64,000 bases of DNA from Pseudomonadota bacterium (GTDB lineage: Bacteria > Pseudomonadota > Alphaproteobacteria > UBA11222): NCBI GenBank assembly GCA_049323435.1, contig JBMOMX010000035.1, positions 10,357 through 74,356 on the forward strand. Direction: 5' to 3'. The position numbers and the translations under genes are program-made. Under the pieces are notes generated by a model, which made no database searches, was not told the DNA's origin, and was given only the letters and a program-made list of their open reading frames with translations. Of this stretch, positions 1,841-37,477 are shown one piece after another; the first letter of the stretch is position 1, and each line of letters starts with the position of its first letter.

Positions 1841-3607
1841 TCACCGCTCCAGCACATACAGGCCCGGCGCATCGCCCAGAGGCGCATAACCCTTTTGCGG
1901 CGCGCCCATTTGCGGCGAACTTACTCTATACCCGGAATGCCGGATCAGCCAGTCCTGCCAGCATAGCCACCAGGAGCCTTCCTGGCGCGGTGTCGCCTGC
2001 TGCCAGCGATCCGGATTTACATAGTTTTCGTCATCTTTTTGCGTCGATATCTGATAATGCTGCCCTGGCTGGCCCGGCGGGTTGACGATGCCCGCATTAT
2101 GGCCGCCATTCGACAGCACAAAGGTTACATCAGAACCAGTGAGCATCTGGATTTTGTAAACAGAACGCCAGGGCGCAACCTGATCCCCGATCGTACTCAC
2201 CGCGAAGATCGGAACCCGTATATCGCGCAGCGATACGGGCCGTCCGTCACACTCATAACGGCCCTCAACCAGATCATTGTCAAGAAACAGATGCCGCAGA
2301 TAGCCCGAATGCATATGAAAAGGCAGGCGCGTTGCATCGGCATTCCAGGCCATAAGATCGTTCATCGGCCGCCGCTGGCCCATCAGATAGGTTTTCACCA
2401 GCGCGGACCAGATCAGATCGTTCGAGCGCAAAAGCTGAAACGCGCCCGCCATCTGGCGCGTGTCGAGATACCCCTGTTCGGCCATCATATCCTCCAGAAA
2501 GCTGACCTGCGCATCGTCAATGAACAGCATCAGCTCTCCGGCCTCGGTGAAATCCGTCTGTGCGGCGAACAGCGTCAGGCTCTGAAGGCGGTCATCCGCA
2601 TCCCTGGCCATGGCGGCGGCGGTAATGGCGAGCAGCGTGCCGCCAATGCAATATCCGGCGGCGTGTATCTTCTGGCCGGGAACGATAGCCGAGATGGCGT
2701 CCAGCGCGGCCATGACGCCAAGCCTGCGGTAATCAACCATGCCCAGATCGCGGTCAGCGCCGGTGGGGTTCTTCCAGGAAATCATAAAAACCGTATGGCC
2801 TTTTTCCGTCAGATATTTTACCAGCGAATTTTCCGGAGAAAGATCGAGGATATAATATTTCATGATCCAGGCGGGGGTGATGAGAATCGGCTCCGCATGC
2901 ACGGTGTCCGCCGCCGGGGCATATTGAATCAGTTCGATCAGCCGGTTGCGGAGCACCACCTTGCCGGGCGTGACCGCCACATTGCGGCCAACCTGAAAGG
3001 CTTCCGCGCCAGCCGGCGGTGCGCCATTCACGGCCCGGCGCCAGTCTTCCCACAAATTGCGTGCGCCAATGACAAAATTCATTCCGCCCTGCCGGATGGT
3101 TTCCTCCAGTATTTCCGGATTTGTCAGCGGGAAATTCATTGGGGAAAGCATGTCAAGCAACTGACGCGCGGTAAAGGCGGTCACATCTTCATGGTGCCGG
3201 GAAACCCCGTCAACCCCTATGGTGGCGTTGTGCCACCATTGCTGCGTCAGCAGAAACCCCTGAGATATGGCGGCGAAGGGCTGTTTGCGCCACGCCTCGC
3301 CGGTGAAGCGGTTGTCAAATGGCAGCGGTTCAATGCATGGTGCGCAGGCAGGATCCGAACTGGCGCGCAGGCAATAGTCGGCGAAGCGCATCGATTTGCG
3401 CAAGGCCTTTATGGCAAGCAGGGCCTGCTTGTCAGGCGATAACAGCAGATGCTGCGCCCAGTCCGTATAGGCCTGCGCCAATGCGGCGGGCGAAATCCCG
3501 GCCGTAAATAACGCCGTGGCGGCGTGCAGCGGACGGTCGAAGGAAAAGGGCAGCCGCTCCGGCGGCTCTTTCCCCAACTGGTTTAATGACGGTGCTCGTT
3601 TTGCCAT
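1841..3607 (-). CDS. phaC: Class I poly(3-hydroxyalkanoate) synthase
   Basis: 588 aa, a typical class I length. Lipase-box GYCIGG is present and the alpha/beta-hydrolase core is conserved. It ends only 37 nt from the start of the acyl-CoA synthetase gene. Confidence 0.93.
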   Translation of the reverse strand: MAKRAPSLNQLGKEPPERLPFSFDRPLHAATALFTAGISPAALAQAYTDWAQHLLLSPDKQALLAIKALRKSMRFADYCLRASSDPACAPCIEPLPFDNRFTGEAWRKQPFAAISQGFLLTQQWWHNATIGVDGVSRHHEDVTAFTARQLLDMLSPMNFPLTNPEILEETIRQGGMNFVIGARNLWEDWRRAVNGAPPAGAEAFQVGRNVAVTPGKVVLRNRLIELIQYAPAADTVHAEPILITPAWIMKYYILDLSPENSLVKYLTEKGHTVFMISWKNPTGADRDLGMVDYRRLGVMAALDAISAIVPGQKIHAAGYCIGGTLLAITAAAMARDADDRLQSLTLFAAQTDFTEAGELMLFIDDAQVSFLEDMMAEQGYLDTRQMAGAFQLLRSNDLIWSALVKTYLMGQRRPMNDLMAWNADATRLPFHMHSGYLRHLFLDNDLVEGRYECDGRPVSLRDIRVPIFAVSTIGDQVAPWRSVYKIQMLTGSDVTFVLSNGGHNAGIVNPPGQPGQHYQISTQKDDENYVNPDRWQQATPRQEGSWWLCWQDWLIRHSGYRVSSPQMGAPQKGYAPLGDAPGLYVLER

Positions 3608-3694: not shown

Positions 3695-4285
3695 TCAGCG
3701 CTTTCTGCCACGCGCAGCAGATTTGGAAACAGTGGATGTGCGTTTACCAGCGCCCGTTTTAAGCAATGCCCGGACCTTTTTATTTTTCACCGGCGCGTCA
3801 TCATCATCATCATCATCATCCGTTTCCTCATCGGATGACGCCACATGTAATGTGAACTCTTTCGTTGCATCCGCTATGGCCGTCTCAGCCGCAGTATCGG
3901 CTCTCGCGGCCATATCGCGGACCATGGCCTGGCCACGCTCTTGCAGCCTTTGCGTCAGCTCCAGCCAGCTCCGGGTTTGCCCGGAGAAGCTCTCCATTAT
4001 GTCCGATACAATATTGGATTGGACGTCGATCAGATCCTGCGGCTTGCGCGCGCTGAACAGATCCTGAAAGTAACGCACGCTCCGTTCGCTGGCGGCTTTC
4101 AGCGCCTCGGTCTGGCGGGCCGATGCGTCCTGAACAAGCTTGCTCATATCCGCATTGTGCGCCTGAAATTTTCCGAAAAGGGATTCCATTTCGGATGTAT
4201 TGAAAATGCCGGACTGACCCCAGAAGGCACGCAAGCCGTTAAAGGGATTCATTGCCGCCGGGATGATTTCTGATGGTGCAGTCAT
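3695..4285 (-). CDS. Phasin (PHA granule-associated protein) with a poly-Asp and Lys-rich C-terminal tail
   Basis: The ORF runs to 4339, but AGGGAG sits 7 nt before the ATG at 4285 (MTAPSEIIPAAMNPF...). The body is a helical phasin-type sequence. It ends DDDDDDDD...KNKKVRALLKTGAGKRTSTVSKSAARGRKR. It lies next to phaC. Confidence 0.78.
   Translation of the reverse strand: MTAPSEIIPAAMNPFNGLRAFWGQSGIFNTSEMESLFGKFQAHNADMSKLVQDASARQTEALKAASERSVRYFQDLFSARKPQDLIDVQSNIVSDIMESFSGQTRSWLELTQRLQERGQAMVRDMAARADTAAETAIADATKEFTLHVASSDEETDDDDDDDDAPVKNKKVRALLKTGAGKRTSTVSKSAARGRKR
3798..3820. repeat. (TCA/ATC)7-8 trinucleotide microsatellite encoding the poly-Asp run of the phasin
   Basis: Plus strand reads gtcatcatcatcatcatcatcatcc. 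On the coding (minus) strand this is GAT repeats that give D8. Confidence 0.9.
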
Positions 4286-4425
4286 GATTCGTGCTCCCTG
4301 GTTATAGTTTACGCTTTGTAAGCTTAATGATCCGATCACGGAGCAATAATTTCATTGCCCCTGAATGATGCGAAAATCCTACCGCGCCATCGTGACGTAT
4401 TCGTGACAGGCGCGAATTTTTTCCG

Positions 4426-5436
4426 CTAAAGCAGCAGACTTGCAGTGATAATAAAACTCATTATTGAGAACGTGTCCTGAAGCACGGTGGCGACAGGACC
4501 AGAGCCAAGCGCGGGATCATATCCAAGCCGCGCGAACAGCCACGGCAGCAGAAAACCAATGGAGGTGGCGACGCTGCATGCAATAACCAGTGCTATCGCA
4601 ACAGACGCGCCCAGCGCCAGGCTGCCAAAACCCAGCCAGACCAGCGGCAAAGCCAGCGCCCCTAATGTTACGCCAATCACAATGCCGGTTCCGATCTCGC
4701 CCAGCAATAACTGCCCCATCCGGGCTTGTGTCAGTGACAGGCTTCGCACCGCAACCGATTCCGTCTGTGTTCCGACGGCGTCAGCGAGATAGACAATTGC
4801 GGGAATGAAGAAGGTAATTGCGATATGCGCCGCAAGCAGCGTCTCGAATTGCGATATCATGAGTGTCGCCAGGGCGCTGCCCGCCATACCGGCAAGCAGC
4901 CATGGCAATCTGTACCAGGCGCGCCGGAACGGCGGCGCCGTCAACGCCGCCTGCGCCGCCTCGGATTTTCCCATGATGCCAACAATATGATGCAGATCCT
5001 CAAGATGCTCATCACGCAGGATCAGCATCAGCGCCGCAGCCGGCACGGCGCCAATAAGGCGGCCATTCGCGTCGCAAACCGCCAGCGATGTGGCGTCTGC
5101 GCGGATCGCCAGGCTGGCGGCCAGTTCGCGATCCGTCTGAGGCGAAACGACATGGCTATTGGCAGGGAACATCAGCGCACTGATTATCTTGCTGGAAGGC
5201 GCCGCCAGAAGATCCGTAAGCTTGGCGACGCCCAGCAGCTTTTGGTCTTTATCGATGACAAAAACATGCGATGCATCGGCATAGCGCTGGCCCATAAGCC
5301 GCCCGCGCGCATCGGCGGCGCTTTCATCAGGCCCCGAAATGGGAATATCACGCACAATATAGCGCGCAACGGTTTGAGGATGCGGTGTTTCGTCCGGGGA
5401 GACAATGTCCACCATATTTTCAGACGCTGCTGTCAT
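4426..5436 (-). CDS. MgtE-family Mg2+/divalent-cation transporter, short form (CBS pair plus MgtE membrane domain, no MgtE_N)
   Basis: 336 aa. A CBS-pair region (VFVIDKDQKLLGV..., AVCDANGRLIGAV) is followed by five hydrophobic helices typical of the MgtE transmembrane domain. Confidence 0.82.
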   Translation of the reverse strand: MTAASENMVDIVSPDETPHPQTVARYIVRDIPISGPDESAADARGRLMGQRYADASHVFVIDKDQKLLGVAKLTDLLAAPSSKIISALMFPANSHVVSPQTDRELAASLAIRADATSLAVCDANGRLIGAVPAAALMLILRDEHLEDLHHIVGIMGKSEAAQAALTAPPFRRAWYRLPWLLAGMAGSALATLMISQFETLLAAHIAITFFIPAIVYLADAVGTQTESVAVRSLSLTQARMGQLLLGEIGTGIVIGVTLGALALPLVWLGFGSLALGASVAIALVIACSVATSIGFLLPWLFARLGYDPALGSGPVATVLQDTFSIMSFIITASLLL

Positions 5437-5688: not shown

Positions 5689-6054
5689 CTAGGCGATAGC
5701 CCCAATCAATGCCAGCGCCGACCGCTCGATAATCTTCTCGAGAACGAAGCCCCCGACCAGGCGGGTCGCAATCCTGCCTGTCTCCGAGATCACGTCTGTC
5801 TGCGCCTGCGGCACACCGCCTTCTGGCGTAACGATATTGTGGCCACGCAAATGATCCAGCAGGCCATTATGGCAGATCAGGCGCATATCATAGGTAATCT
5901 TAATGCTGCCGGTAACCGTGCTGGCCTCAACCGTTTTAACACCCTGTAATGCGGAGAGGGTTTCGCACACACGGCCCGCCAACCACTCATCGCGCTTGAT
6001 GGCGTCGCTGCGTACCCTCAGCCGGCCCGGAACATGATGCAGATAATGGACCAC
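5689..6054 (-). CDS. Hypothetical protein with an HMA-like fold lacking CxxC (HxVPGRxRxR motif), paralogue A
   Basis: GTG start with AGGAG 7 nt upstream. It opens VHYLHHVPGRLRVRSD...GVKTVEASTVTGSIKITYD. The predicted b-a-b-b-a-b order matches heavy-metal-associated domains, but Arg residues replace the metal-binding cysteines. The same motif occurs in ORF 6906-7427 and at the N-terminus of the ATPase at 12148. Confidence 0.65.
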   Translation of the reverse strand: MVHYLHHVPGRLRVRSDAIKRDEWLAGRVCETLSALQGVKTVEASTVTGSIKITYDMRLICHNGLLDHLRGHNIVTPEGGVPQAQTDVISETGRIATRLVGGFVLEKIIERSALALIGAIA

Positions 6055-6265
6055 GGTTGCTCCTGTGGTGGTTTAAGTCACGATCCCTCTATGTCAAAAA
6101 TATTTCAGTTTCAGTGTTGGTTTTATGAAGAAATGGTGACGGGCAAAGTGCCGTGGATGCAGCGCAAGCAATAATCCGGCCTTCTCCGATCTGACTGAAT
6201 TGCCGGATTCAATCAGATCGGATATTCCGTATTAGCGGCATGCGCCTGTCTGTGCCGGGTCGTTG

Positions 6266-6913
6266 TTACAGCACGCCATCACGTGGAGGTTGCGGTTTAC
6301 CCTCTGGCAGCAATGCGCCTGCTACACGCTTGACACCGCCCAGGACATTGACCAGCACGCTTTCCACTGCTGACACTGCCGTGTTGCTGATGCTTCCCGC
6401 CGCCTCAAGCGCGCCGTTCGCTGCCGATACGGCCAGATTGCCAACATTGCCGCCAATTTCAGCCGCCGCCTCGACCACGCCCTCCACAACGCGCTTGGCG
6501 ACCGTGCCGACATCGCCGCCAACTTCAGCCGTGCCCTTGACCGCAGTTTTAGCGAGTTCCGCAGCCGCGCCAATAAGATCGCCGCCAACATCACTGACGC
6601 CAAGAATGACGCCCTTGGCGACGCTCTTGGTGGACAGGACCAGTCCGGTGCCGACCTGCTCCGTGGCCTGGATGGTTCCATGGATCACGTCGCGGGCAAC
6701 CCCGAGTGTTTCGGATGTCACCGATTTAGCGGCATGCACCGTGTTGGTGACGGTGCTGCGCGCCAGCGCCACGATCTCAGCCTCGATTTGGTCGATACCG
6801 CGCAGGCTGTTCACGATACCGTCTTTGATCTTGAGGCCAGCCTCGCTGGCCGGCTGCGCGGTTTCATGCATTATCTCGGCTGCTGTTTCTTTAACATGTG
6901 GGGTCTTAACCAT
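6266..6913 (-). CDS. Hypothetical Gly/Ala/Val-rich protein with degenerate ~21-aa tandem repeats
   Basis: The ORF runs to 6994, but the ATG at 6913 has AAGGAG 7 nt upstream (MVKTPHVKE...). The repeats are SDVGGDLIGAAAELAKTAVKGT / AEVGGDVGTVAKRVVEGVVEAA / AEIGGNVGNLAVSAANGALEAA / GSISNTAVSAVESVLVNVLG. I see no recognisable family. Confidence 0.6.
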   Translation of the reverse strand: MVKTPHVKETAAEIMHETAQPASEAGLKIKDGIVNSLRGIDQIEAEIVALARSTVTNTVHAAKSVTSETLGVARDVIHGTIQATEQVGTGLVLSTKSVAKGVILGVSDVGGDLIGAAAELAKTAVKGTAEVGGDVGTVAKRVVEGVVEAAAEIGGNVGNLAVSAANGALEAAGSISNTAVSAVESVLVNVLGGVKRVAGALLPEGKPQPPRDGVL

Positions 6914-7427
6914 CTCTGTCTCCTTGCTGCTGATGTTTACGTTGTGCTTTCCTCCCCTCGCTTCCGCTTCTTTTAGGCGTGGCAACCGGGGCAATAGCCT
7001 CGATTTCCAGCGCCGCTTGATCTGTGTCCGCGTTCAACAGGCTGAACGCGTACCAGAAAAATGTTGCAGCCGGCGCAAGGACATTACCCTGCGCCAGCTG
7101 ATAAAGGCCAAGCCCGATCAATAGCGGCGGCAACAGGCTTCGCAGGTCCAGCGCCGCTATGTCCGTAGACGGTGCAGGCGGTTCCCCGCCAAGCCGGAAC
7201 AGGCCGTGTTGTTCGGCATAGCGCGTTATCGCTTCCGGCTCGGTGGTGTGAATGACCAGCACGCTTCCCGTCATAGGGTTTATTTCCACCGTCTGCACCA
7301 TCTCGCATTTCAACAGCTCCGCGCCTATATGGGCATAAAATTCCCGGTCCCCGCGCCGCGCCGCAATCCGGTAGCGCACTCTTCCAGGCACCTCATGCGT
7401 CAGCGCGGCGGCTGCATCGCCATTCAC
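6906..7427 (-). CDS. Hypothetical protein with an HMA-like fold lacking CxxC, paralogue B
   Basis: GTG start whose codon overlaps the upstream stop as GTGA. It opens ...THEVPGRVRYRIAARRGDREFYAHIGAELLKCEMVQTVEINPMTGSVLVIHT. The C-terminal half is hydrophobic and Pro/Leu-rich. Its stop overlaps the next gene's start by 8 nt. Confidence 0.62.
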   Translation of the reverse strand: MNGDAAAALTHEVPGRVRYRIAARRGDREFYAHIGAELLKCEMVQTVEINPMTGSVLVIHTTEPEAITRYAEQHGLFRLGGEPPAPSTDIAALDLRSLLPPLLIGLGLYQLAQGNVLAPAATFFWYAFSLLNADTDQAALEIEAIAPVATPKRSGSEGRKAQRKHQQQGDRDG

Positions 7428-7792
7428 TGGACCGATCCAGGAAAAATATTATCGGGCTCCTCAGCCGCGGGCTTCGCCGGCTGCTGCCGCGCCGCCTGGG
7501 GCGCCGCCGTGGCGGCCGTCGCTGTGGCTGTGGCGGCCGCCGCCGTCTGCCGCTCTTTCGCCAGTTCCGCATGCGCCTCAGCGGCTGTGTCTTCGATGAA
7601 CTCGCCAAGTTCCGCTGCGGCCTCCCGCCCGCGCTCGAACATCTCAATGCCGGTTTTGAGCAAGGTTTTTGCCACCGGCCGGGCAGCCCGCAGAACGACA
7701 GGAACGATCACCGGTCCCAATACCGCGACACCAAGGCCCACCGCCAAACCAACAACAACGTTTCGCTTCAACATCTCATCAATGATCATCAT
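7424..7792 (-). CDS. Hypothetical small membrane-anchored helical protein with an Ala/Thr low-complexity tail
   Basis: ATGATG start. One N-terminal transmembrane helix (VVVGLAVGLGVAVLGPVIVPVVL) is followed by a charged helical region, then AAAATATATAATAAPQAARQQPAKPAAEEP. Confidence 0.55.
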   Translation of the reverse strand: MMIIDEMLKRNVVVGLAVGLGVAVLGPVIVPVVLRAARPVAKTLLKTGIEMFERGREAAAELGEFIEDTAAEAHAELAKERQTAAAATATATAATAAPQAARQQPAKPAAEEPDNIFPGSVQ

Positions 7793-7916: not shown

Positions 7917-9116
7917 CTAATCCCGCAGCGCGGGCACCTTGTCGATGCGTTCCCACGGCAGCCCAATATCCATGCGGCCTATATGACCATATGCCGCAAG
8001 GCGGCTGTAGAAGCGGCCGCGAAACAAAGCCGGCAGGCGGCGCAGATTAAATTCCGCGATTATTCCGGCTGGCCGAAACTCGAATGCGGCCTGCAACCTT
8101 TTTGCGATCTCTTCGTCCGCAATACGGCCCGTGCCAAAAGTCTGCACGCGCAGGCTGACAGGTTGCGCCATGCCGATCGTGTAACTGAGTTGCAACTCGC
8201 ACTCCTCCGCAAGCCCGGCGGCAACGACATTCTTCGCCGCGTAGCGGGCGGCATAGGCGCTAATCCGGTCAATGCGCGATGGGTCCTTACCGCTCAGGGC
8301 CGCGCCGCTGTGGCGTGAATATTCGCCATAAGTGTCAATCGCATTTTTGCGGCCGGTAAGCCCCGCATGCATTTCCGGCCCGCCCGTGAATAGCAGGCCG
8401 CCGGGATTGACGAAAATGCGGGTGGCGTTATCGGGGCGGATTAATTCATCTTCAAAGACCGGCTTGACGGCAAGATCGACGAGGTTTGCCTCCAGCTCCT
8501 TTAACGAAGGGGCGTGCCGGGGATCAACCGCGGCTGTAATGGTAAGGCTGTGGATGCGATGCGGGCGCCGGTTGCGATACTCCACCGCAACCTGAATCTT
8601 GCCGTCAGGGGCGAGATAGCCAAGCTGACGGGTGAGGCGGACGGTTGCGATGCGCCGCGCCAGCTTGTGCGCAAGCCAGACCGGCAGGGGCATCAGCGCA
8701 GCGGTCTGGGTGCAGGCATAGCCGAACTGGGTTACCTGGTTATCGGCGGCAATTGCGTCAATGCCCGCATCGTCCAGCATGGTTTCGTCGATCTCGCGGT
8801 AGGCGCCGCCAACTTCGGTAAGACTGGTCATGATGTGGCAGTTCGCGGCCGTGAACCCGTCTTCGTCATCGCCATTGCCATAGCCCGCACGCCTTATTGC
8901 CTGACGGGCAACCATTGGCGCATCAATCGTGGCGCGCGATGCGAAACGCACGGCAAGGAAGAGGATGCCCTTCGCAACGGCGCATTCGGCGTCAAGCCGG
9001 GAAAACGGGTCGGCAAGCAGATAACTGTCGAGGATCGAATCGCTGATCTGGTCGCACAGCTTGTCCGGATGCCCTTCGGTTACGGATTCGGATGTGAAGA
9101 CAAAATCTTCCATCAT
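7917..9116 (-). CDS. metK: S-adenosylmethionine synthetase, a divergent MetK paralogue
   Basis: The ORF extends to 9305, but the MetK N-terminus MMEDFVFTSESVTEGHPDK begins at 9116, giving 399 aa. The conserved blocks are altered: GGGAFSGKD is replaced by HSGAALSGKD, and DQGxMFGYA by DNQVTQFGYA. The ATGATGG start overlaps the ATPase TGA stop. Confidence 0.85.
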   Translation of the reverse strand: MMEDFVFTSESVTEGHPDKLCDQISDSILDSYLLADPFSRLDAECAVAKGILFLAVRFASRATIDAPMVARQAIRRAGYGNGDDEDGFTAANCHIMTSLTEVGGAYREIDETMLDDAGIDAIAADNQVTQFGYACTQTAALMPLPVWLAHKLARRIATVRLTRQLGYLAPDGKIQVAVEYRNRRPHRIHSLTITAAVDPRHAPSLKELEANLVDLAVKPVFEDELIRPDNATRIFVNPGGLLFTGGPEMHAGLTGRKNAIDTYGEYSRHSGAALSGKDPSRIDRISAYAARYAAKNVVAAGLAEECELQLSYTIGMAQPVSLRVQTFGTGRIADEEIAKRLQAAFEFRPAGIIAEFNLRRLPALFRGRFYSRLAAYGHIGRMDIGLPWERIDKVPALRD

Positions 9117-12100
9117 GCGCCTCCATCCGGATTTGCGGCTTGCGCCCGCAGCCGCGCGCCCTTGATGGTCTCGTTGACAAGCAGCGAACCTGCGGCAGCC
9201 GCGCCCGCCACGGCGTAATCCGCCAGTCCAAGCGCATCCAGCCCAAGCAGGCGGCGCGTTACAGGGAATAATGCGGCGAGCCCCTGCAACCCCAGCAGAC
9301 CCCATACCGCCTGGTTGAGACGCGGATTGGGCGGCAGCGCATTACGCTCGAAGATGGTGTGGCGCGGCGATCGGGCGGAGAGGGCATGCAGTAATTGCCC
9401 GGCGGCAAGCGTGATAAAGGCCACACCGCCAGCCGCCGGGCCAGCGCCATAGCGGGCGGCGCCATACAGATAGGCGGCCAGCCCGCCCGCGCTAAGCACC
9501 GCGCCTTCAATGCCGATGCGCCGGAACTCTTCTGCGGTAATCAGGGGTTCCCGCGGATCGCGCGGCGGGTCTTTGAGCACGTCCGGCTCGGGCGGTTCCA
9601 GCCCCAGCGCCAGCGCCGGGAAAATGTCCGAAACCAGATTGATCCACAATAGCTGCACCGGCGTAAGCGGCTGACCGAGACCAAGGCCGACCGCCCCCAG
9701 CATGACAAAGATTTCACTGGAATTGGTGGCGAGCAGGTAATGGATCGCCTTGCGGATGTTAGCGTAAATGGTCCGCCCCTGACCAAGCGCGACCAGCATG
9801 CTTTGAAGCCGGTCGTCCTCAAGGATCACATCGGCTACTTCGCGCGCCACATCGGTGCCGCTCTGGCCCATGGTCACTCCAATATCGGCCGCGCGCAGCG
9901 CAGGCCCGTCATTGATGCCATCACCCGTCATGGCCACAATATTGCCGTTGCGTTGCAGCGCCTGCACGATCTGCAATTTGTTCGCCGGGCTGACACGGGC
10001 GAACACATGCGTGCGCTGCGCCAGCCCCGCCAGCAATCCGGGATCAAGTCTGTCAAGATCAACGCCTTCAAGAATTTCCACAGGCTGGCCCTGAGAGAGA
10101 TCAAGCTCCCTGGCGATAGCGAAGGCCGTCGCACCCTGGTCACCTGTAATGATAATGGTGCGCAGGCCCGCATCATGGAAGTCCCGCATCAGCGCCGCCA
10201 TGCCGGGGCGCGTCGGATCGGCAAGGCCAGCCAGGCCCAGCCAGGAAAATGCGCCGGGATCCTGGGCATCGCCCTGGCGGGTTGCAAAGCCGAGCACCCG
10301 CAGGCCGCGCCCAGCCATTGCCTGGTTCAGTGCCTGGATGCGCAGCACATCCTCTTCGTCAAGCGGCCGCTCCGCGCCGCCATCAAAAAAGGCCGTGCAT
10401 AATTGCAGCACTTCGTCCGGGCTGCCTTTGACGGCCGTGAACGGGCAGCCATCCTCGCCTGCATGGCTGGTCATCATGAAACGATGCTGTTCCGTGCGCC
10501 GGTCCATATTGAGCATCGGGCGCTGTGCGCGCAATTGCCGCACATCGATGCCCGCAGACATGGCAAGTTCTATCAGCGCGGTTTCGGTCGGCGAACCCTT
10601 CAGCGAGACGTCTTCGTCCTCAGCGATCTCGACTTCGCTGCACAAGACGCAGGTTTCCAGCAGCCTGCGCAGTTCATCGTTTGCAGATGCGCTAGCCCCG
10701 GAATGGTTGCGCTGAATCTGACCGTCCGCGATCTCGAAGATTTCGCGGGCATTCGCGACCGCCACGGCGCTCATGCGGTTGAGCGTTAGCGTGCCTGTCT
10801 TGTCGAGGCATACGGTGCTGACGGCGCCAAGGGTTTCAACAGCATCCAGGCGGCGGATGAGAACGTTATGCGTCCGCATGGTGCGGATGCCCAGCGCCAG
10901 CGTCACCGTTGCGACTGTCGGCAGGCCTTCGGGCACCGCAGCAACGGCCAGCGAGACGCTGCTTCGGAGCATTTGCAACATTCCAAAGCCGCGCAGCAGA
11001 CCCAGCGAGAAAACCAGCCCACAGGCGCCCAGGCTGAGCCAGACCAACTGTTTGCCCATGATATCGAGCTGATGCTGCATGGGCGTTTCCGGCGGCCGTG
11101 CATCGCCCACCAGGGATTGAATATGGCCAAGTTCGGTGCGTTCCGCCGTCGCCGTCGCCGCCGCCAGGCCGGAGCCGCCCGTAACCGCGGTTCCCTTGAA
11201 CACCATATTTGCGCGATCGCCCAGCGCTGTCCCGGCGCTGGCGATGGCGGTAGCGCTCTTGACCGAGGGCATGCTTTCACCGGTAAGCGCGGATTCATCA
11301 ATTGTGAGATCCTTTGCCTCAATGACCCGCGCATCGCAGGCGATAAGCGTGCCCGGAACAAGCTTCAGCATATCGCCCGGAACGATGTCACAGGACGCGA
11401 CCTCGCAAACACCGCCGTCGCGCAGCACCAGCGGCGCAGCGGGCACAAGCCGGCCGAGCGCTTCAATGGTGTGCTCCGCCTCGGACTCGGAACGATAGCC
11501 AATGGCGGAATTTAGCGCCACGACCGCGAGAATAACCACTGCGTCCGCAAGCCCCCCGGTCGCAACCGACAGCGCCGCCGATCCGAGCAGCAAAAGCGAG
11601 GGCAAGCTGTTGACCTGGCCAAGCAGAATTTCAAGCGCGCTGCGGCGCGGCATTTGCGGCAGCGCATTCGGCCCGTAGCGCGCCAGCCGCAGCGCGGCCT
11701 CGCTGCTGGAAAGGCCTTGCTCCGGCTGTGTCTCCAGCCGCTGCAACACCTGCTCCCTGCTCAGCGTATGGGGCGGGGCATCCCCCGGGACGGCGTCTGG
11801 CATGCCGCTATCCTCGCGCTTCCTGCCTGCGGGGAAGGGAACGACATTTGGCGCCGGCTTTGGTTCGCCGATGTCCGCCGCGCCGGAATCGAGCATGGCC
11901 GCCACAGCCTGGATTATTGTGTCAACGGATCGCGCAGGATCAAAATGCACCAGCAGATTGCCGGTGCGGATATTTGCGGCGGCGGCGCGAATGCCGCTGC
12001 GCCCCGGAAGCCGATGCTCCAGCATCTGCGCAACCCCGGTATTGCGGTCAAGGCCAACCACTTTCAGGCGTGCGCGGCCGCTGACCGCGACATGCAGCGG

Positions 12101-12148
12101 TACGACGCCTGCAAGCGATGCGGCCATTGACGCCACGCTCATGACCAT
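9113..12148 (-). CDS. Cation-transporting P-type ATPase, P2 (Ca2+-ATPase-like) type, with an extra ~128-aa HMA-like N-terminal domain
   Basis: 1011 aa. It carries DKTGTLT, PEGLP, KGSPDEVL, TGDGINDGPAL and GVTMGQSGTDVAREVADVIL, and a Cation_ATPase_N helix (LSSSEAALRLARYGPNALPQ) at about residues 130-165. Ahead of that helix lies ...PLHVAVSGRARLKVVGL...TGNLLVHFD. Confidence 0.9.
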   Translation of the reverse strand: MVMSVASMAASLAGVVPLHVAVSGRARLKVVGLDRNTGVAQMLEHRLPGRSGIRAAAANIRTGNLLVHFDPARSVDTIIQAVAAMLDSGAADIGEPKPAPNVVPFPAGRKREDSGMPDAVPGDAPPHTLSREQVLQRLETQPEQGLSSSEAALRLARYGPNALPQMPRRSALEILLGQVNSLPSLLLLGSAALSVATGGLADAVVILAVVALNSAIGYRSESEAEHTIEALGRLVPAAPLVLRDGGVCEVASCDIVPGDMLKLVPGTLIACDARVIEAKDLTIDESALTGESMPSVKSATAIASAGTALGDRANMVFKGTAVTGGSGLAAATATAERTELGHIQSLVGDARPPETPMQHQLDIMGKQLVWLSLGACGLVFSLGLLRGFGMLQMLRSSVSLAVAAVPEGLPTVATVTLALGIRTMRTHNVLIRRLDAVETLGAVSTVCLDKTGTLTLNRMSAVAVANAREIFEIADGQIQRNHSGASASANDELRRLLETCVLCSEVEIAEDEDVSLKGSPTETALIELAMSAGIDVRQLRAQRPMLNMDRRTEQHRFMMTSHAGEDGCPFTAVKGSPDEVLQLCTAFFDGGAERPLDEEDVLRIQALNQAMAGRGLRVLGFATRQGDAQDPGAFSWLGLAGLADPTRPGMAALMRDFHDAGLRTIIITGDQGATAFAIARELDLSQGQPVEILEGVDLDRLDPGLLAGLAQRTHVFARVSPANKLQIVQALQRNGNIVAMTGDGINDGPALRAADIGVTMGQSGTDVAREVADVILEDDRLQSMLVALGQGRTIYANIRKAIHYLLATNSSEIFVMLGAVGLGLGQPLTPVQLLWINLVSDIFPALALGLEPPEPDVLKDPPRDPREPLITAEEFRRIGIEGAVLSAGGLAAYLYGAARYGAGPAAGGVAFITLAAGQLLHALSARSPRHTIFERNALPPNPRLNQAVWGLLGLQGLAALFPVTRRLLGLDALGLADYAVAGAAAAGSLLVNETIKGARLRAQAANPDGGA

Positions 12149-12636: not shown

Positions 12637-13947
12637 CTATTCCTTGCTGATCAGAACCGTTTCGACATGATGGTCGCGCATGCCTTCGACAATGAAGCGG
12701 TAGGCGCCATCGGTGATCATGTCCCCTTCCACCGGAATACGTTCCAGCCGGTGCATGAACAGGCCGGACAATGTATTCACATTGACCGGCTCGCCGGGAA
12801 TGTAACCGGTTTCACGCTCGACATCGGCCAGTGACGCCAGGCCATGCGCCTTCCATCCGGCGTCTGTTTCGGTGATCGGAAATTCCGAAATATTTTCGTC
12901 CGTTTCATCGGCGATTTCGCCGACAATTTCTTCCAGCAGATCTTCAATCGTCACCAGGCCGGCAAAAGTGCCATATTCATCCAGAATGCAGGCCATATGC
13001 GCCTTTTTAACCCGCATCATTTCAAACAAGGTGGAAACCTTGAGCGATTCCGTAACCACCAGCGGCTCACGGCAATGGATGCGCAAATCTTTCCAGGGCT
13101 CGGGCCCGCCCGAAAGCAGGGTGTCCACAATATCCTTCATCAGAATCATGCCGATAAGACTGTCGCCGCTGCCATCGACAAGCGGAAAACGCGAATGGCG
13201 CGTGTCTTTCATAATGGCCAGGTTGGACTCCGGCGGCTGATCCAGCCGCAGCAGATCACACTTCATCCGCGGGATCATGACCTGGCCCACTGTGCGTTCG
13301 TTGAACCGGAACAGGTTCTGGATCATCTCCGCGGTGTCAAGGTGCAATTCGCCATGCTCGGCCGATGTCGTCACCAGGCCGCGAAATTCCGTATTGGTCA
13401 GCACATCCATATGGCTGGCCTCCTCGACGCCGAACAGGCCAAGCATGCCCCGTGACGCCCGGTTAAGCCCCCAATGCAAGGGATAGGACAGCAGATAAAA
13501 AATCCGCAATGGAATGGCGCAGAACAATGAAAGCGCCTCGGGCTTGCGGATGGCGAAGGTTTTCGGCACCTGTTCTCCCACGACGATATGCAGCGACGAA
13601 AAGACAGTGAAGCCGATCAGAAACGAAATCGTATGCAATGCCGGCTGGCTCAGTTCGAACGGCGCCAGCAGCGGCTCGATCAGCGCCGCCACCGCTGGTT
13701 CGCCCACCCAGCCCAAACCAAGCGAAGCCATGGTGATGCCAAGCTGACAGGCCGCCAGATAGGCTTCGAGCTCCTCCTGTATTTTAAGGGTCAGTTTAGC
13801 CGAAAAACTGCCCGTGCTGGCCATGCTTTCAATACGAAATCCCCTCGCTTTCACCAGTGCGAATTCCGCCGCCACAAAAAATGCATTGGCGGCCAGCAGC
13901 ACCAGTACGGCGATCAGACTTACCGAAATTTCCTCGCTCGTCAGCAT
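12637..13947 (-). CDS. HlyC/CorC (CNNM) family transporter: DUF21, CBS pair and CorC_HlyC domains
   Basis: 436 aa. It has the N-terminal four-TM DUF21 region, CBS domains and the C-terminal CorC domain. Confidence 0.9.
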   Translation of the reverse strand: MLTSEEISVSLIAVLVLLAANAFFVAAEFALVKARGFRIESMASTGSFSAKLTLKIQEELEAYLAACQLGITMASLGLGWVGEPAVAALIEPLLAPFELSQPALHTISFLIGFTVFSSLHIVVGEQVPKTFAIRKPEALSLFCAIPLRIFYLLSYPLHWGLNRASRGMLGLFGVEEASHMDVLTNTEFRGLVTTSAEHGELHLDTAEMIQNLFRFNERTVGQVMIPRMKCDLLRLDQPPESNLAIMKDTRHSRFPLVDGSGDSLIGMILMKDIVDTLLSGGPEPWKDLRIHCREPLVVTESLKVSTLFEMMRVKKAHMACILDEYGTFAGLVTIEDLLEEIVGEIADETDENISEFPITETDAGWKAHGLASLADVERETGYIPGEPVNVNTLSGLFMHRLERIPVEGDMITDGAYRFIVEGMRDHHVETVLISKE

Positions 13948-35837: not shown

Positions 35838-37316
35838 TTAGCCGGCGCGAACCAGCTGCCCGCGTCCCGTCCTCAGACCAAGGATCCCCGCCAGTCCCGT
35901 GCCCAGAAGCAGCAGCATGCCGGGCTCAGGCACAGCGGCGCCATCATCATCCACAAGGATGGCCGTCATCGTCAGGGACAGGGCGCCGCCAGTGAAGTCG
36001 AGGAAAGTTGGGAACGCCGTGGCGAAGCCCGCATCCGCAACGTCAAGTAGTGGCAATATCCCCATCAGATCAAATGTGGTGACATCATCATCGGGGTCGA
36101 AGGAGTAGGATTCACCCGGTAGAATGGTGGCCACGACAATCCCATCAACAATGATGTCGAAGGGCCCGGTAAAGCCGGTCAAGGGCGCCATCACTTCGAG
36201 GAACTCGGCCCCGGGACCGGTCAGCGCATAGGTGAAGCCTTCCGCAAATGGCGGGTCATACCACAGACGGGGTTGTGGCGCGGGGAACTCAAACTGCCCG
36301 GGTGCGGGAACGAATGGCAGTACAGGATTGTCTTCCGTCTCGCCCGGGGCAACACCACCGACGCCGCCAAAGGCAAAGATAAAGGTCGCGGGCGTGCCGT
36401 CAGGGTTGCCTTCGACAGGATCGCCCACGGCAGCAGATGTAAACCCATCGCCGCCGCCGCCGCCAGGGTTGCTTTGCCCCAATGAATACAGATTGACACC
36501 AAGCCCGGCCAGCGCGGCAAGGGCGCTGGCCTCGCTTTCGCGCGAGCCGTAGAAGATGTTGAAGGTGCGGCTTTCCCCGGAGGCAAGATCACCAAAGGCA
36601 AAATCAAACAGAGAGCCATGGTCGTCCGGCCCCAGGTCGATAAAGTCGACGTTTTCCGACGAGGACCCAAAGTCACCTGTCGTGCTCGGACCCGTGAGCG
36701 GGTCGCCACTGGCGAAGCCATCATTGCTGGCATACAACACATTGCCGCCATTGGCCACCAGATTGTCCTCCACGCCCTGATGGGTGACAAATTCATTGAA
36801 AGCAGTGGGCGGCACATCCCAATCCATTACCCGCCGGTAGATGACATTATTCGCTGTCAGATCGCCAGTATTCCGGATCGTGACATTGACCTGGAAAATA
36901 TCGGCCTGCAGCGAGGGGCCAAACAGATGCGTGACCTCGATCGGGGCGCCGGATAGCCTTACCAGGGAGCTGGCGGTGTTGGCGGTTGCACCGAATGTGC
37001 CGCCGGTCAGGCCGCCAAAACCCGCAGCCTGATTAGCGAAACCTGAGGTGGTAATGCTGTCATAGGTGGTCGCAACACCCCAGCCTTCGCAGAAACAACC
37101 CGGAGAAATGGCATCGCCAATCGGGTTGCGGTAAACACCGTAGGTCATGAACCCGCCCGGACCGTTATCGGAAAAGTTCAGCTCGGCTGTATCGTTCACC
37201 CCTAGCGAAGTCGCGCCATAGGTGATGACCGCGCCAGCATAGGCCGGGCCATTTGCTAGAAATAATGCCATCGGCGCTGTCGCGGCGGTGGCCAATAATG
37301 CTCGTCTTAAGCTCAT
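35838..37316 (-). CDS. PEP-CTERM sorting-domain protein (an exosortase substrate), Gly-rich
   Basis: AGGAGA lies before the ATG at 37316. Signal peptide MSLRRALLATAATAPMALFLANGPAYA. The C-terminus VPEPGMLLLLGTGLAGILGLRTGRGQ is a PEP motif, a TM helix and an Arg cluster. Confidence 0.75.
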   Translation of the reverse strand: MSLRRALLATAATAPMALFLANGPAYAGAVITYGATSLGVNDTAELNFSDNGPGGFMTYGVYRNPIGDAISPGCFCEGWGVATTYDSITTSGFANQAAGFGGLTGGTFGATANTASSLVRLSGAPIEVTHLFGPSLQADIFQVNVTIRNTGDLTANNVIYRRVMDWDVPPTAFNEFVTHQGVEDNLVANGGNVLYASNDGFASGDPLTGPSTTGDFGSSSENVDFIDLGPDDHGSLFDFAFGDLASGESRTFNIFYGSRESEASALAALAGLGVNLYSLGQSNPGGGGGDGFTSAAVGDPVEGNPDGTPATFIFAFGGVGGVAPGETEDNPVLPFVPAPGQFEFPAPQPRLWYDPPFAEGFTYALTGPGAEFLEVMAPLTGFTGPFDIIVDGIVVATILPGESYSFDPDDDVTTFDLMGILPLLDVADAGFATAFPTFLDFTGGALSLTMTAILVDDDGAAVPEPGMLLLLGTGLAGILGLRTGRGQLVRAG

Positions 37317-37477
37317 GATATTTCTCCTATTAATAGTTAAGGACGTCCCAAAATGCGGAAGCCAAAGTTTTGATCTGCTTACTTCACCCAAATGCTTGCG
37401 GGTATATTCAAATACTAAGCAATGCCCATGCTAATTATGGGTTTATTAATGGTCAATAATTTGTCTATTCAAAATTT

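Follow-up and report, generated by a model that had tools for sequence, protein, structure and literature searches.

For intracellular inclusions of Ca-carbonate, or inclusions rich in Ca, a genetic determinant has been described only in cyanobacteria and in a few Methylococcaceae that carry ccyA, the gene for calcyanin (PMC11773610). In Microcystis, ccyA is flanked by genes for a DUF5132 protein, for CoBaHMA proteins and for a Ca2+/H+ exchanger, and the DUF5132 gene, cax and a CoBaHMA-DUF454 gene are co-expressed with it (bioRxiv 10.1101/2024.07.07.602159). Calcyanin has a C-terminal domain that is a triplicated, Gly-rich helical hairpin, the fold of which is unsolved (PMC8890360; 10.64898/2025.12.07.689555). 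Known as (GlyZip)3, this domain is defined by a Gly or small residue plus a hydrophobic residue every four positions, over ~50 amino acids (aa) and 12 G-X3-G units per GlyZip, by a central Gly-Pro, and by a Trp and a Glu of the third GlyZip that are strictly conserved (PMC8890360). Here we describe a gene whose setting is much like that of ccyA, but whose product differs from calcyanin at the level of motifs. It lies on the minus strand, at positions 6913–6266, of a 64,000-nucleotide stretch of DNA—‘the window’ in what follows—from an alphaproteobacterium of the UBA11222 lineage (contig JBMOMX010000035.1, positions 10,357 to 74,356). It encodes 215 aa that are rich in Gly, Ala and Val, and these we refer to as the repeat protein. 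To our knowledge, CoBaHMA and DUF5132 proteins have so far been met mainly in the context of calcyanin. The family to which the repeat protein belongs, and the gene cassette in which it is found, appear to be undescribed in the curated libraries and the literature that we searched; papers on DUF5132, PF19991, CoBaHMA and calcyanin yielded no description of either.

The repeat and its predicted fold

The gene is a real one that has gone without annotation. Its coding sequence coincides exactly with the interval that an initial annotation, made from the letters of the DNA, had picked out as a Gly/Ala/Val-rich tandem-repeat protein, and it has homologs across many genomes. The start codon (ATG, 6913–6911) follows a ribosome-binding site, AAGGAG (6925–6920), at a spacing of 6 nucleotides (nt), and the stop codon occupies 6268–6266. 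Taken mechanically, the open reading frame (ORF) reaches back to a TTG at 6994, and that extra stretch falls within the upstream gene. An antisense ORF, 6240–7124 (+), can be set aside as a shadow: all of the homology evidence falls on the minus-strand frame. Scanning for promoters and terminators gave nothing over shuffle expectation.

In composition the protein is simple. Val (33 residues), Ala (33) and Gly (27) make up 43% of it; Phe, Trp, Tyr and Cys are missing altogether; the net charge is –5, and the grand average of hydropathy (GRAVY) is +0.30. There is no transmembrane segment—the maximum 19-residue Kyte–Doolittle mean is 1.34—and no signal peptide was found; judged on these properties, the protein is cytoplasmic. 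An adhesin or cell-wall protein, an outcome that the initial annotation had named as fatal to its own proposal, was rejected for lack of a signal peptide, of a transmembrane segment and of a match to any such family.

The repeat has a period of 22 residues, composed of two hendecads of 11, rather than the period of ~21 first proposed. In a BLOSUM62 lag autocorrelation of residues 61–200, with 2000 shuffles for the null, lag 22 stands out at z = 7.5, followed by lag 44 (z = 5.8) and lag 11 (z = 4.7), with lag 4 at just z = 3.5; the largest z of any shuffle at any lag was 4.7. The periodicity as such is far above chance, and each of the three units originally quoted is itself 22 residues long. 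Nor does the repeat end with those three. Five clear 22-mers, including a conserved KSVAKGxxxGVSDVGGD core, fill residues 85–194 (positions 6332–6661, minus strand), and a single 11-residue register runs from residue ~30 to residue 201 (6311–6826, minus strand), the region of the predicted solenoid described below.

The same register is kept in an alignment of 109 family members. Hydrophobic or small residues fill positions 3, 4, 7, 8, 10 and 11, while a basic residue occupies position 1 (40% Lys or Arg), an acidic one position 2 (40% Asp or Glu), and Gly or an acidic residue position 6. There is a turn in every other hendecad—G88-x-G90, G110-G111-D112, G132-x-D134, G154-G155-N156 and, in most relatives, G176. 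The hendecads in between have a Gly at mid-helix, and at four of these five places (G79, G101, G145 and G167) it is 81–96% conserved; at the fifth, residue 189, Gly is found in 48% of relatives and Asn in the repeat protein. Across the family alignment G88, G101, G105, G110, G132, G145 and G154 are conserved at 83–96%, and residues beside the turns are highly conserved as acidic: D108 in 93%, D112 in 89%, D134 in 88% and E152 in 83%.

The helices that result are amphipathic, as had been anticipated, with a hydrophobic or small face of ~180° and a polar face of Lys/Arg and Asp/Glu. At 90° the hydrophobic-moment spectrum shows no peak (0.16); it is largest at 65, 160 and 180°, near harmonics of 11. 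Proline occurs only at residues 5, 21, 203, 207, 209 and 210. At the level of DNA, the 22-aa units are at most 68% identical, no exact run exceeds 12 nt, and Tandem Repeats Finder reports no period of 66 nt; the idea that the repeats might be prone to recombination does not survive these numbers. One relative has more repeat units, so the number of units varies within the family.

Structure prediction with AlphaFold2 (AF2) became more confident as the alignment deepened. With 26 sequences the mean predicted local distance difference test (pLDDT) was 81.9, and the predicted template-modeling score (pTM) 0.73; with 109 sequences these rose to 87.2 and 0.78, all five models falling at 82–87. Averaged over blocks of 10 residues, pLDDT is at least 82 throughout residues 21–190, and 74 over residues 191–200. 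Helices are predicted at 22–62 (or 24–35 plus 40–62), 66–87, 91–108, 113–130, 135–153, 157–175 and 177–201, parted by the G-G-D/N turns; they are 18–23 residues long, with the first up to 41 in the second model, and D112, D134 and N156 occupy helix N-cap positions. When compared with the PDB by Foldseek, the model matched de novo designed helical repeat proteins only, no natural protein doing better than E = 0.1. The match to DHR4 (5cwb; template-modeling scores 0.67/0.72) superposes with a root-mean-square deviation of 3.1 Å over 195 columns at 14–15% identity, and came up again with the second model. Searched by sequence profile, the PDB yielded a designed helical bundle (7.3e-5) and nothing else, alpha-synuclein coming in at a non-significant E = 3.

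Because the Foldseek matches are restricted to designed helical repeat proteins, we take the fold to be a solenoid. As modeled, the repeat protein forms a compact alpha-solenoid in which helical hairpins pack through small residues, with the stacked helix-turn-helix elements by which that fold class is recognized, in this case by prediction only. DHR4 and the repeat protein are alike in forming a two-layer stack of helix-turn-helix repeats with helices of ~20 residues; DHR4 is an artificial protein, and has no evolutionary or functional link to this one.

Pfam and NCBIfam scans of the repeat protein at E ≤ 0.1 returned no family, in agreement with the first impression that it matched none. Word-indexed searching of 5.8 billion proteins brought up 39 relatives, of which the best is 56% identical; they are either unnamed or labelled ‘MucR family’ owing to a fused domain. 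When 1.84 billion cluster representatives were searched exhaustively by profile, 930 matched at E ≤ 1e-3 and 397 at E ≤ 1e-10, and genomes scanned at one per GTDB species contained 245 loci that encode family members. The closest of these belong to metagenome-assembled genomes (MAGs), one of a member of the Pseudomonadota (88%) and one of a member of the Rhodospirillaceae (70%). The remaining loci come mostly from Nitrospirota/Thermodesulfovibrionales, Syntrophobacteraceae and other Desulfobacterota, with further hosts among Methylomirabilis, Binatia, Planctomycetota, Geobacteraceae and Gammaproteobacteria. Two or three copies are present in some genomes. Additional domains occur, too. A C-terminal ROS/MucR domain is found in 8 of 109 members, a receiver domain in two and a GGDEF domain in one, and at least 20 of 108 members have a Lys/Arg-rich tail at the C-terminus, in some cases of the histone-H1/AlgP type (P0092, for example, has KKAAKKPAKKPAKKSAKK). 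The MucR zinc-finger domain is absent from the repeat protein in the Pfam scan. Single relatives match, weakly, the Pfam families Chlorosome_CsmC (5e-5), Senescence (spartin lipid-droplet; 1.8e-4) and Phasin_2 (0.0095).

The cassette and its likeness to the calcyanin locus

The gene was initially placed inside an ATPase operon, and this is where it lies; the arrangement is kept in other loci. All genes of the run are on the minus strand, and are transcribed in the order ATPase, MetK-like protein, DUF5132 protein, 173-aa CoBaHMA protein, repeat protein, 121-aa CoBaHMA protein, MgtE-like protein, phasin and PhaC. The ATPase (1011 aa; 9113–12148) is a P2-type, Ca2+(/Mn2+)-like P-type pump with an N-terminal CoBaHMA-like domain, according to its Pfam matches (E1-E2_ATPase, Cation_ATPase_N/C, and HMA_2 at 3.7e-5). 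Its best NCBIfam match is the PMR1-type Ca ATPase. In the PDB it best matches human SPCA1 (7e-137) and Listeria LMCA1 (1.9e-134), with SERCA behind these two, and the ion-site motifs PEGLP and N..D (the Asn/Asp of transmembrane segment 6) are conserved in the alignment. The stop codon of the ATPase gene overlaps the ATG of the next (ATGA), which encodes a MetK-like paralog (7917–9116) that scores 358 bits against TIGR01034 and whose best PDB match is SAM synthase (1.8e-98).

Three small genes follow in close order. The DUF5132 protein (122 aa; 7424–7792; PF17195, E = 6.6e-11) comprises an N-terminal transmembrane helix and a long helix, and the stop codon of its gene overlaps the GTG start of the 173-aa CoBaHMA gene (GTGA). 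The CoBaHMA protein (6906–7427; Pfam HMA_2, E = 6.2e-12) ends in a hydrophobic hairpin, and its stop codon overlaps the ATG of the repeat-protein gene by 8 nt (ATGGTTAA). Overlaps such as these make it probable that the trio—DUF5132, CoBaHMA and repeat protein—is translationally coupled. Downstream lies a second CoBaHMA (HMA_2) protein, of 121 aa (5689–6054; E = 1.9e-9), homologs of which flank the cassette in many loci. Both HMA_2 proteins have, at the N-terminus, a His followed by basic residues (HHVPGRLRVR and HEVPGRVRYR), which fits the published CoBaHMA signature as far as sequence goes.

To gauge how well this order is conserved, 85 related loci were searched by phmmer with the proteins of the window; upstream genes were counted in the 64 loci that have at least 2.5 kb of upstream DNA, and full contexts in 48. 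DUF5132 occurs within 3 kb upstream of the repeat-protein homolog in 52 of the 64, and an HMA_2-like gene, of either of the types in the window, within 1.5 kb upstream in 42. The latter is the co-occurrence with HMA-like ORFs that the initial annotation had recommended looking for. Among the 48 loci the ATPase is present in 34, the MetK paralog adjoining it in every one, and all five gene types are found together in 31, across several phyla.

The MetK paralog of the window scores above the metK equivalog cutoff, yet its active-site loops deviate from the norm: GAGDQG has become AADNQV, and GGGAFSGKD has become SGAALSGKD, and there is an Asn at the position of E. coli Asp118. The SGAALSGKD-type change is found in ~50 of the cassette-linked MetKs in other loci (L001–L085), and the Asn in most of the 14 in which that loop is readable. 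Because these deviations recur from locus to locus, the cassette MetKs can be regarded as a distinct subfamily, going by their sequences.

How far, then, does the resemblance to calcyanin extend? Both proteins are rich in Gly and small residues, and largely apolar; both are built of repeated helical hairpins packed through small residues, to judge by prediction in the case of the repeat protein; neither has a solved natural homolog; and both are encoded beside DUF5132 and CoBaHMA (HMA_2) genes and a Ca2+ transporter. The order DUF5132, CoBaHMA, repeat protein, Ca transporter is the order described for the ccyA locus of Microcystis, and this association with Ca2+ transport, CoBaHMA and DUF5132 is found in the operon of the window and in the 31 complete loci alike. 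In their motifs the two proteins part company. The period is 11/22 residues in the repeat protein, where calcyanin has Gly every 4; the units are of 22/44 aa rather than three of ~50 aa; the turns are G-G-D/N rather than the conserved Gly-Pro of calcyanin, no Gly-Pro occurring in residues 22–201; and there is no Trp, the residue that is strictly conserved in GlyZip3. The repeat protein had no match in the NCBIfam library, which is assumed to include the model, PdsO, that matches GlyZip2. In place of a Ca2+/H+ exchanger there is a P-type ATPase as the transporter, and in place of cyanobacteria the hosts are for the most part anaerobic Nitrospirota, Desulfobacterota and Pseudomonadota. Because the sequence hallmarks of calcyanin (Gly every 4, Gly-Pro, Trp) are missing, we treat the repeat protein as an apparent analog of calcyanin in gene position and architecture, and not as a calcyanin.

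Variation around the cassette

Loci that lack the ATPase have a character of their own. In those of the Syntrophobacteraceae type (L046, 4680–12311, and ~10 similar), a hybrid histidine kinase comes first, followed in order by DUF5132, a membrane protein of 183 aa that has no Pfam match, a zinc-ribbon protein, the repeat-protein homolog—often fused to MucR—TerC, and a ParA/MinD-like ATPase. In loci of this type, with no pump, it is a cation transporter, TerC, that follows the gene. An unsupervised census of neighbors, covering 59 cassette loci and 22 loci without the ATPase, brought further companions to light. One or more of pstS, pstC/A, pstB and phoU lie near the cassette in 27 of the 59, in several phyla, and lipid-synthesis genes of the OlsB-like, OlsA-like or GT21 kinds in 13; loci with neighbors of these Pst or Ols types include L010, L017, L018, L020, L022, L023, L026, L029, L033–L037, L053, L056, L073 and L079. 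When cells are starved of phosphate, OlsB, OlsA and GT21 enzymes produce lipids that contain no phosphorus. Together the pstSCAB-phoU and lipid genes suggest a link between the cassette and phosphate starvation or acquisition. An InsA/IS1595-type zinc-ribbon protein of 120–137 aa (L046, 9239–9601 (+), and L053, 18396–18806 (–), for example) is encoded in 28 of the 59 cassette loci and in 11 of the 22 others, and may be a dedicated regulator or partner; DUF3562 is found in 18 of the 59.

The identity of the ion is a matter of some interest. The relevant one could be Mn2+ rather than Ca2+, because the pump is SPCA-like (Ca2+/Mn2+), because TerC belongs to a Mn-linked exporter family, and because DUF5132 proteins of the same subfamily (P0223 and P0240) are found in Candidatus Manganitrophus, a Mn-oxidising member of the Nitrospirota. 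The matches listed by the DUF5132 profile search were close relatives only, with no Microcystis entry among them.

In the window itself there are no Pst/PhoU, Ols/GT21, zinc-ribbon or DUF3562 neighbors. Two further divalent-cation transporters bracket the cassette. Downstream is a short MgtE-like channel (4426–5436, minus strand) that has CBS and MgtE transmembrane domains (Pfam MgtE 2.6e-19, and CBS) and lacks the usual N-domain; elsewhere, MgtE is found only in L036 and L073. Upstream is a transporter of the CNNM/CorC type, DUF21-CBS-CorC_HlyC (12637–13947, minus strand; Pfam CNNM 2.6e-46, CBS and CorC_HlyC), which is a neighbor specific to this window. Beyond the MgtE gene lie genes for a phasin (Phasin_2; 3695–4339, minus strand) and, adjoining it, PhaC (1841–3607, minus strand), both assigned by Pfam. 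The phasin ends in eight Asp residues and then a Lys/Arg-rich tail (KNKKVRALLKTGAGKRTSTVSKSAARGRKR) that recalls the DNA-binding tails of granule-tethering phasins. PhaC and phasin genes had no match in any of the 85 other loci, and a role in PHB granules, which their proximity might bring to mind, was rejected: only in this window are they so linked. Of the ten largest remaining ORFs of the window, all but one (GDH, SMC, S1, P450s, FtsX and so on) are ordinary chromosomal genes, with no magnetosome or organelle genes among them. The exception, a 517-aa ORF at 35838–37391 (–), between a P450 gene and other ordinary genes, has no Pfam match at E ≤ 1e-5.

What the repeat protein might do

We picture the repeat protein as a soluble scaffold or adaptor of the CoBaHMA/DUF5132 membrane module, one that would organise, or regulate, the place to which the pumped cation goes; we give this proposal an even chance of being right. 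A scaffold was among the roles suggested at the outset, and it is still the best reading that we have. The protein would be a cytoplasmic alpha-solenoid of some eight helices of 18–23 residues, joined by Gly-Gly-Asp/Asn turns, in which Gly and Ala at fixed positions would allow the helices to pack very tightly. It would be co-produced with a pair of small proteins anchored in the membrane, DUF5132 and the CoBaHMA protein with its transmembrane hairpin, the whole module being tied genetically to the CoBaHMA-fused Ca2+(/Mn2+)-type ATPase and its coupled MetK paralog. With the CoBaHMA and DUF5132 proteins as anchors, it would dock where the pump-bearing membrane faces the cytoplasm, and might there organise or regulate whatever receives the cation; in lineages that have one, the MucR domain or the Lys/Arg-rich tail might link this site to DNA, to the nucleoid or to some other polyanion. 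We infer the physical complex, the membrane location, the transported ion and the scaffold role itself; what the analysis shows is the gene with its repeat and family, the predicted fold, the conserved synteny with its overlaps, and the fusions of domains.

A number of observations sit uneasily with this proposal. Binding among the cassette proteins is a proposal from synteny and gene overlaps. Among 81 non-redundant loci the ATPase is missing from the stretch covered in 22, a number of which lie on short contigs, and solitary extra copies of the repeat-protein gene occur in certain genomes. The repeat protein has no DNA-binding tail, and the window no Pst/PhoU genes. AF2 may be biased toward idealised helical repeats, and the protein may also adopt an extended, membrane-bound state. 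Two candidate ‘Rosetta-stone’ fusions, P0050 (HMA_2 plus repeat protein) and P0041 (repeat protein plus ATPase N-terminus), have garbled or overlap-derived linkers, and had to be discarded as probable artefacts of frameshifts or gene calling.

The alternative with the longest pedigree is that of an exchangeable lipid-surface or coat protein: the bundle opens, and its 11-residue helices lie flat on the membrane or monolayer of a granule, droplet or vesicle, in the manner of apolipoproteins, perilipins, alpha-synuclein, phasins or chlorosome envelope proteins. Like apolipoprotein A-I, alpha-synuclein and the perilipins, the repeat protein has a strict 11/22 periodicity, is rich in Val, Ala, Gly, Thr, Lys and Glu, and has the polar face, Lys/Arg then Asp/Glu, that marks class A amphipathic 11-mer repeats. 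Its composition is near that of the NAC region of alpha-synuclein, for which the PDB profile match was not significant, and the single-member matches to Chlorosome_CsmC, Senescence and Phasin_2 point the same way, as do the phasin and PhaC genes 2–3 kb off in the window. So might the CoBaHMA neighbors, proposed to bind anionic lipids in work (Gaschignard 2024) that 10.64898/2025.12.07.689555 cites. The apolipoprotein likeness drawn by the initial annotation holds, then, for the periodicity; it does not hold for the shape, which AF2 predicts to be a compact, self-folding solenoid whose short helices are broken every 22 residues by conserved G-G-D turns, instead of long, extended, lipid-binding helices. 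The conserved mid-helix Gly residues suit helix–helix packing better than a lipid-facing surface, and homology to alpha-synuclein was dismissed when hhalign gave it a probability of 2.7%. The companion suggestions of a phasin or a late-embryogenesis (LEA) protein fare worse: there is no Phasin match at E ≤ 0.1, and no PhaC or phasin in the 85 other loci, while with the LEA proteins of group 3, whose 11-mer repeats are very hydrophilic and are disordered in solution, only the 11-residue periodicity is shared, the repeat protein being hydrophobic and confidently predicted to fold. In the PHA-granule tethers PhaF and PhaM, the N-terminal part is helical and amphipathic, and the C-terminal tail, which is Lys/Ala/Pro-rich and histone-H1-like, binds DNA. 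Some members of the family have such tails, or a MucR domain, but the repeat protein has no tail and no phasin sequence similarity, and the family has no linkage to PHA genes outside the window. All told, we consider a lipid coat unlikely.

More doubtful still is a low-affinity buffer for Ca2+ or Mn2+, or a metallochaperone, exchanging ions with the ATPase through rows of conserved acidic residues that adjoin its Gly-rich turns, at either end of the solenoid. The acidic residues that flank the turns are indeed highly conserved (83–93%), the net charge is negative, and the gene is invariably found near cation transporters, be they the Ca-type ATPase, TerC or, in the window, MgtE and CNNM. But D112, D134 and N156 may be purely structural, as N-caps; the protein is only mildly acidic, with no known Ca-binding motif or Pfam match; and fusions to MucR, or to Lys/Arg tails, would be unexpected in a metallochaperone. 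Least credible to us is a protein that is mainly a regulatory sensor or anti-activator of the transcription of the cassette, or of Pho-linked genes, with the repeat as its ligand- or partner-binding domain. The ROS/MucR, receiver and GGDEF fusions would be explained thereby, and so would the zinc-ribbon neighbors in loci with and without the ATPase, the hybrid histidine kinases close by, and the pstSCAB-phoU genes that adjoin 27 of the 59 cassette loci. Most members, however, this one included, have no DNA-binding or signaling domain; the tight overlap with genes for structural membrane proteins suggests stoichiometric co-production; and the Lys-rich tails look more like non-specific tethers for polyanions than parts of sequence-specific regulators.

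A more ambitious version of the scaffold proposal deserves mention, improbable though we think it is. The cassette as a whole might be the machinery for an unrecognised intracellular inclusion or compartment of Ca (or Mn) phosphate or carbonate, in mostly anaerobic non-cyanobacteria, with the repeat protein as the functional counterpart of calcyanin. It would act as a Gly-rich, hairpin-repeat scaffold at a mineral or membrane interface, tied in some lineages to the nucleoid by MucR domains or Lys-rich tails, and partitioned with the help of the ParA-like ATPase; the pstSCAB-phoU, olsBA and GT21 neighborhood would connect the inclusion to the phosphate economy of the cell (the Pho regulon). According to papers on carbonate-forming magnetotactic bacteria, no determinant is known outside the cyanobacteria; an ‘absence of molecular determinants’ is reported, and the possibility of ‘a non-homologous gene ... 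performs a similar function’ is raised (PMC11773610). The genomes of carbonate-forming Pseudomonadota have no P-type Ca pumps, according to the same source, and the cassette is therefore not the determinant that those organisms are missing.

To return to the scaffold, the repeat protein forms the core of a conserved cassette that joins CoBaHMA, DUF5132 and a Ca-type pump in at least six phyla. The cassette offers a testable handle on what CoBaHMA and DUF5132 proteins do, and a handle, too, on whether there is a calcyanin-like role beyond the cyanobacteria, and on how cation pumping and phosphate acquisition are connected. Whatever its function turns out to be, this is a natural protein for which AlphaFold predicts, with high confidence, a fold represented so far only by de novo designs, and its family, with hundreds of members, deserves a Pfam entry of its own.

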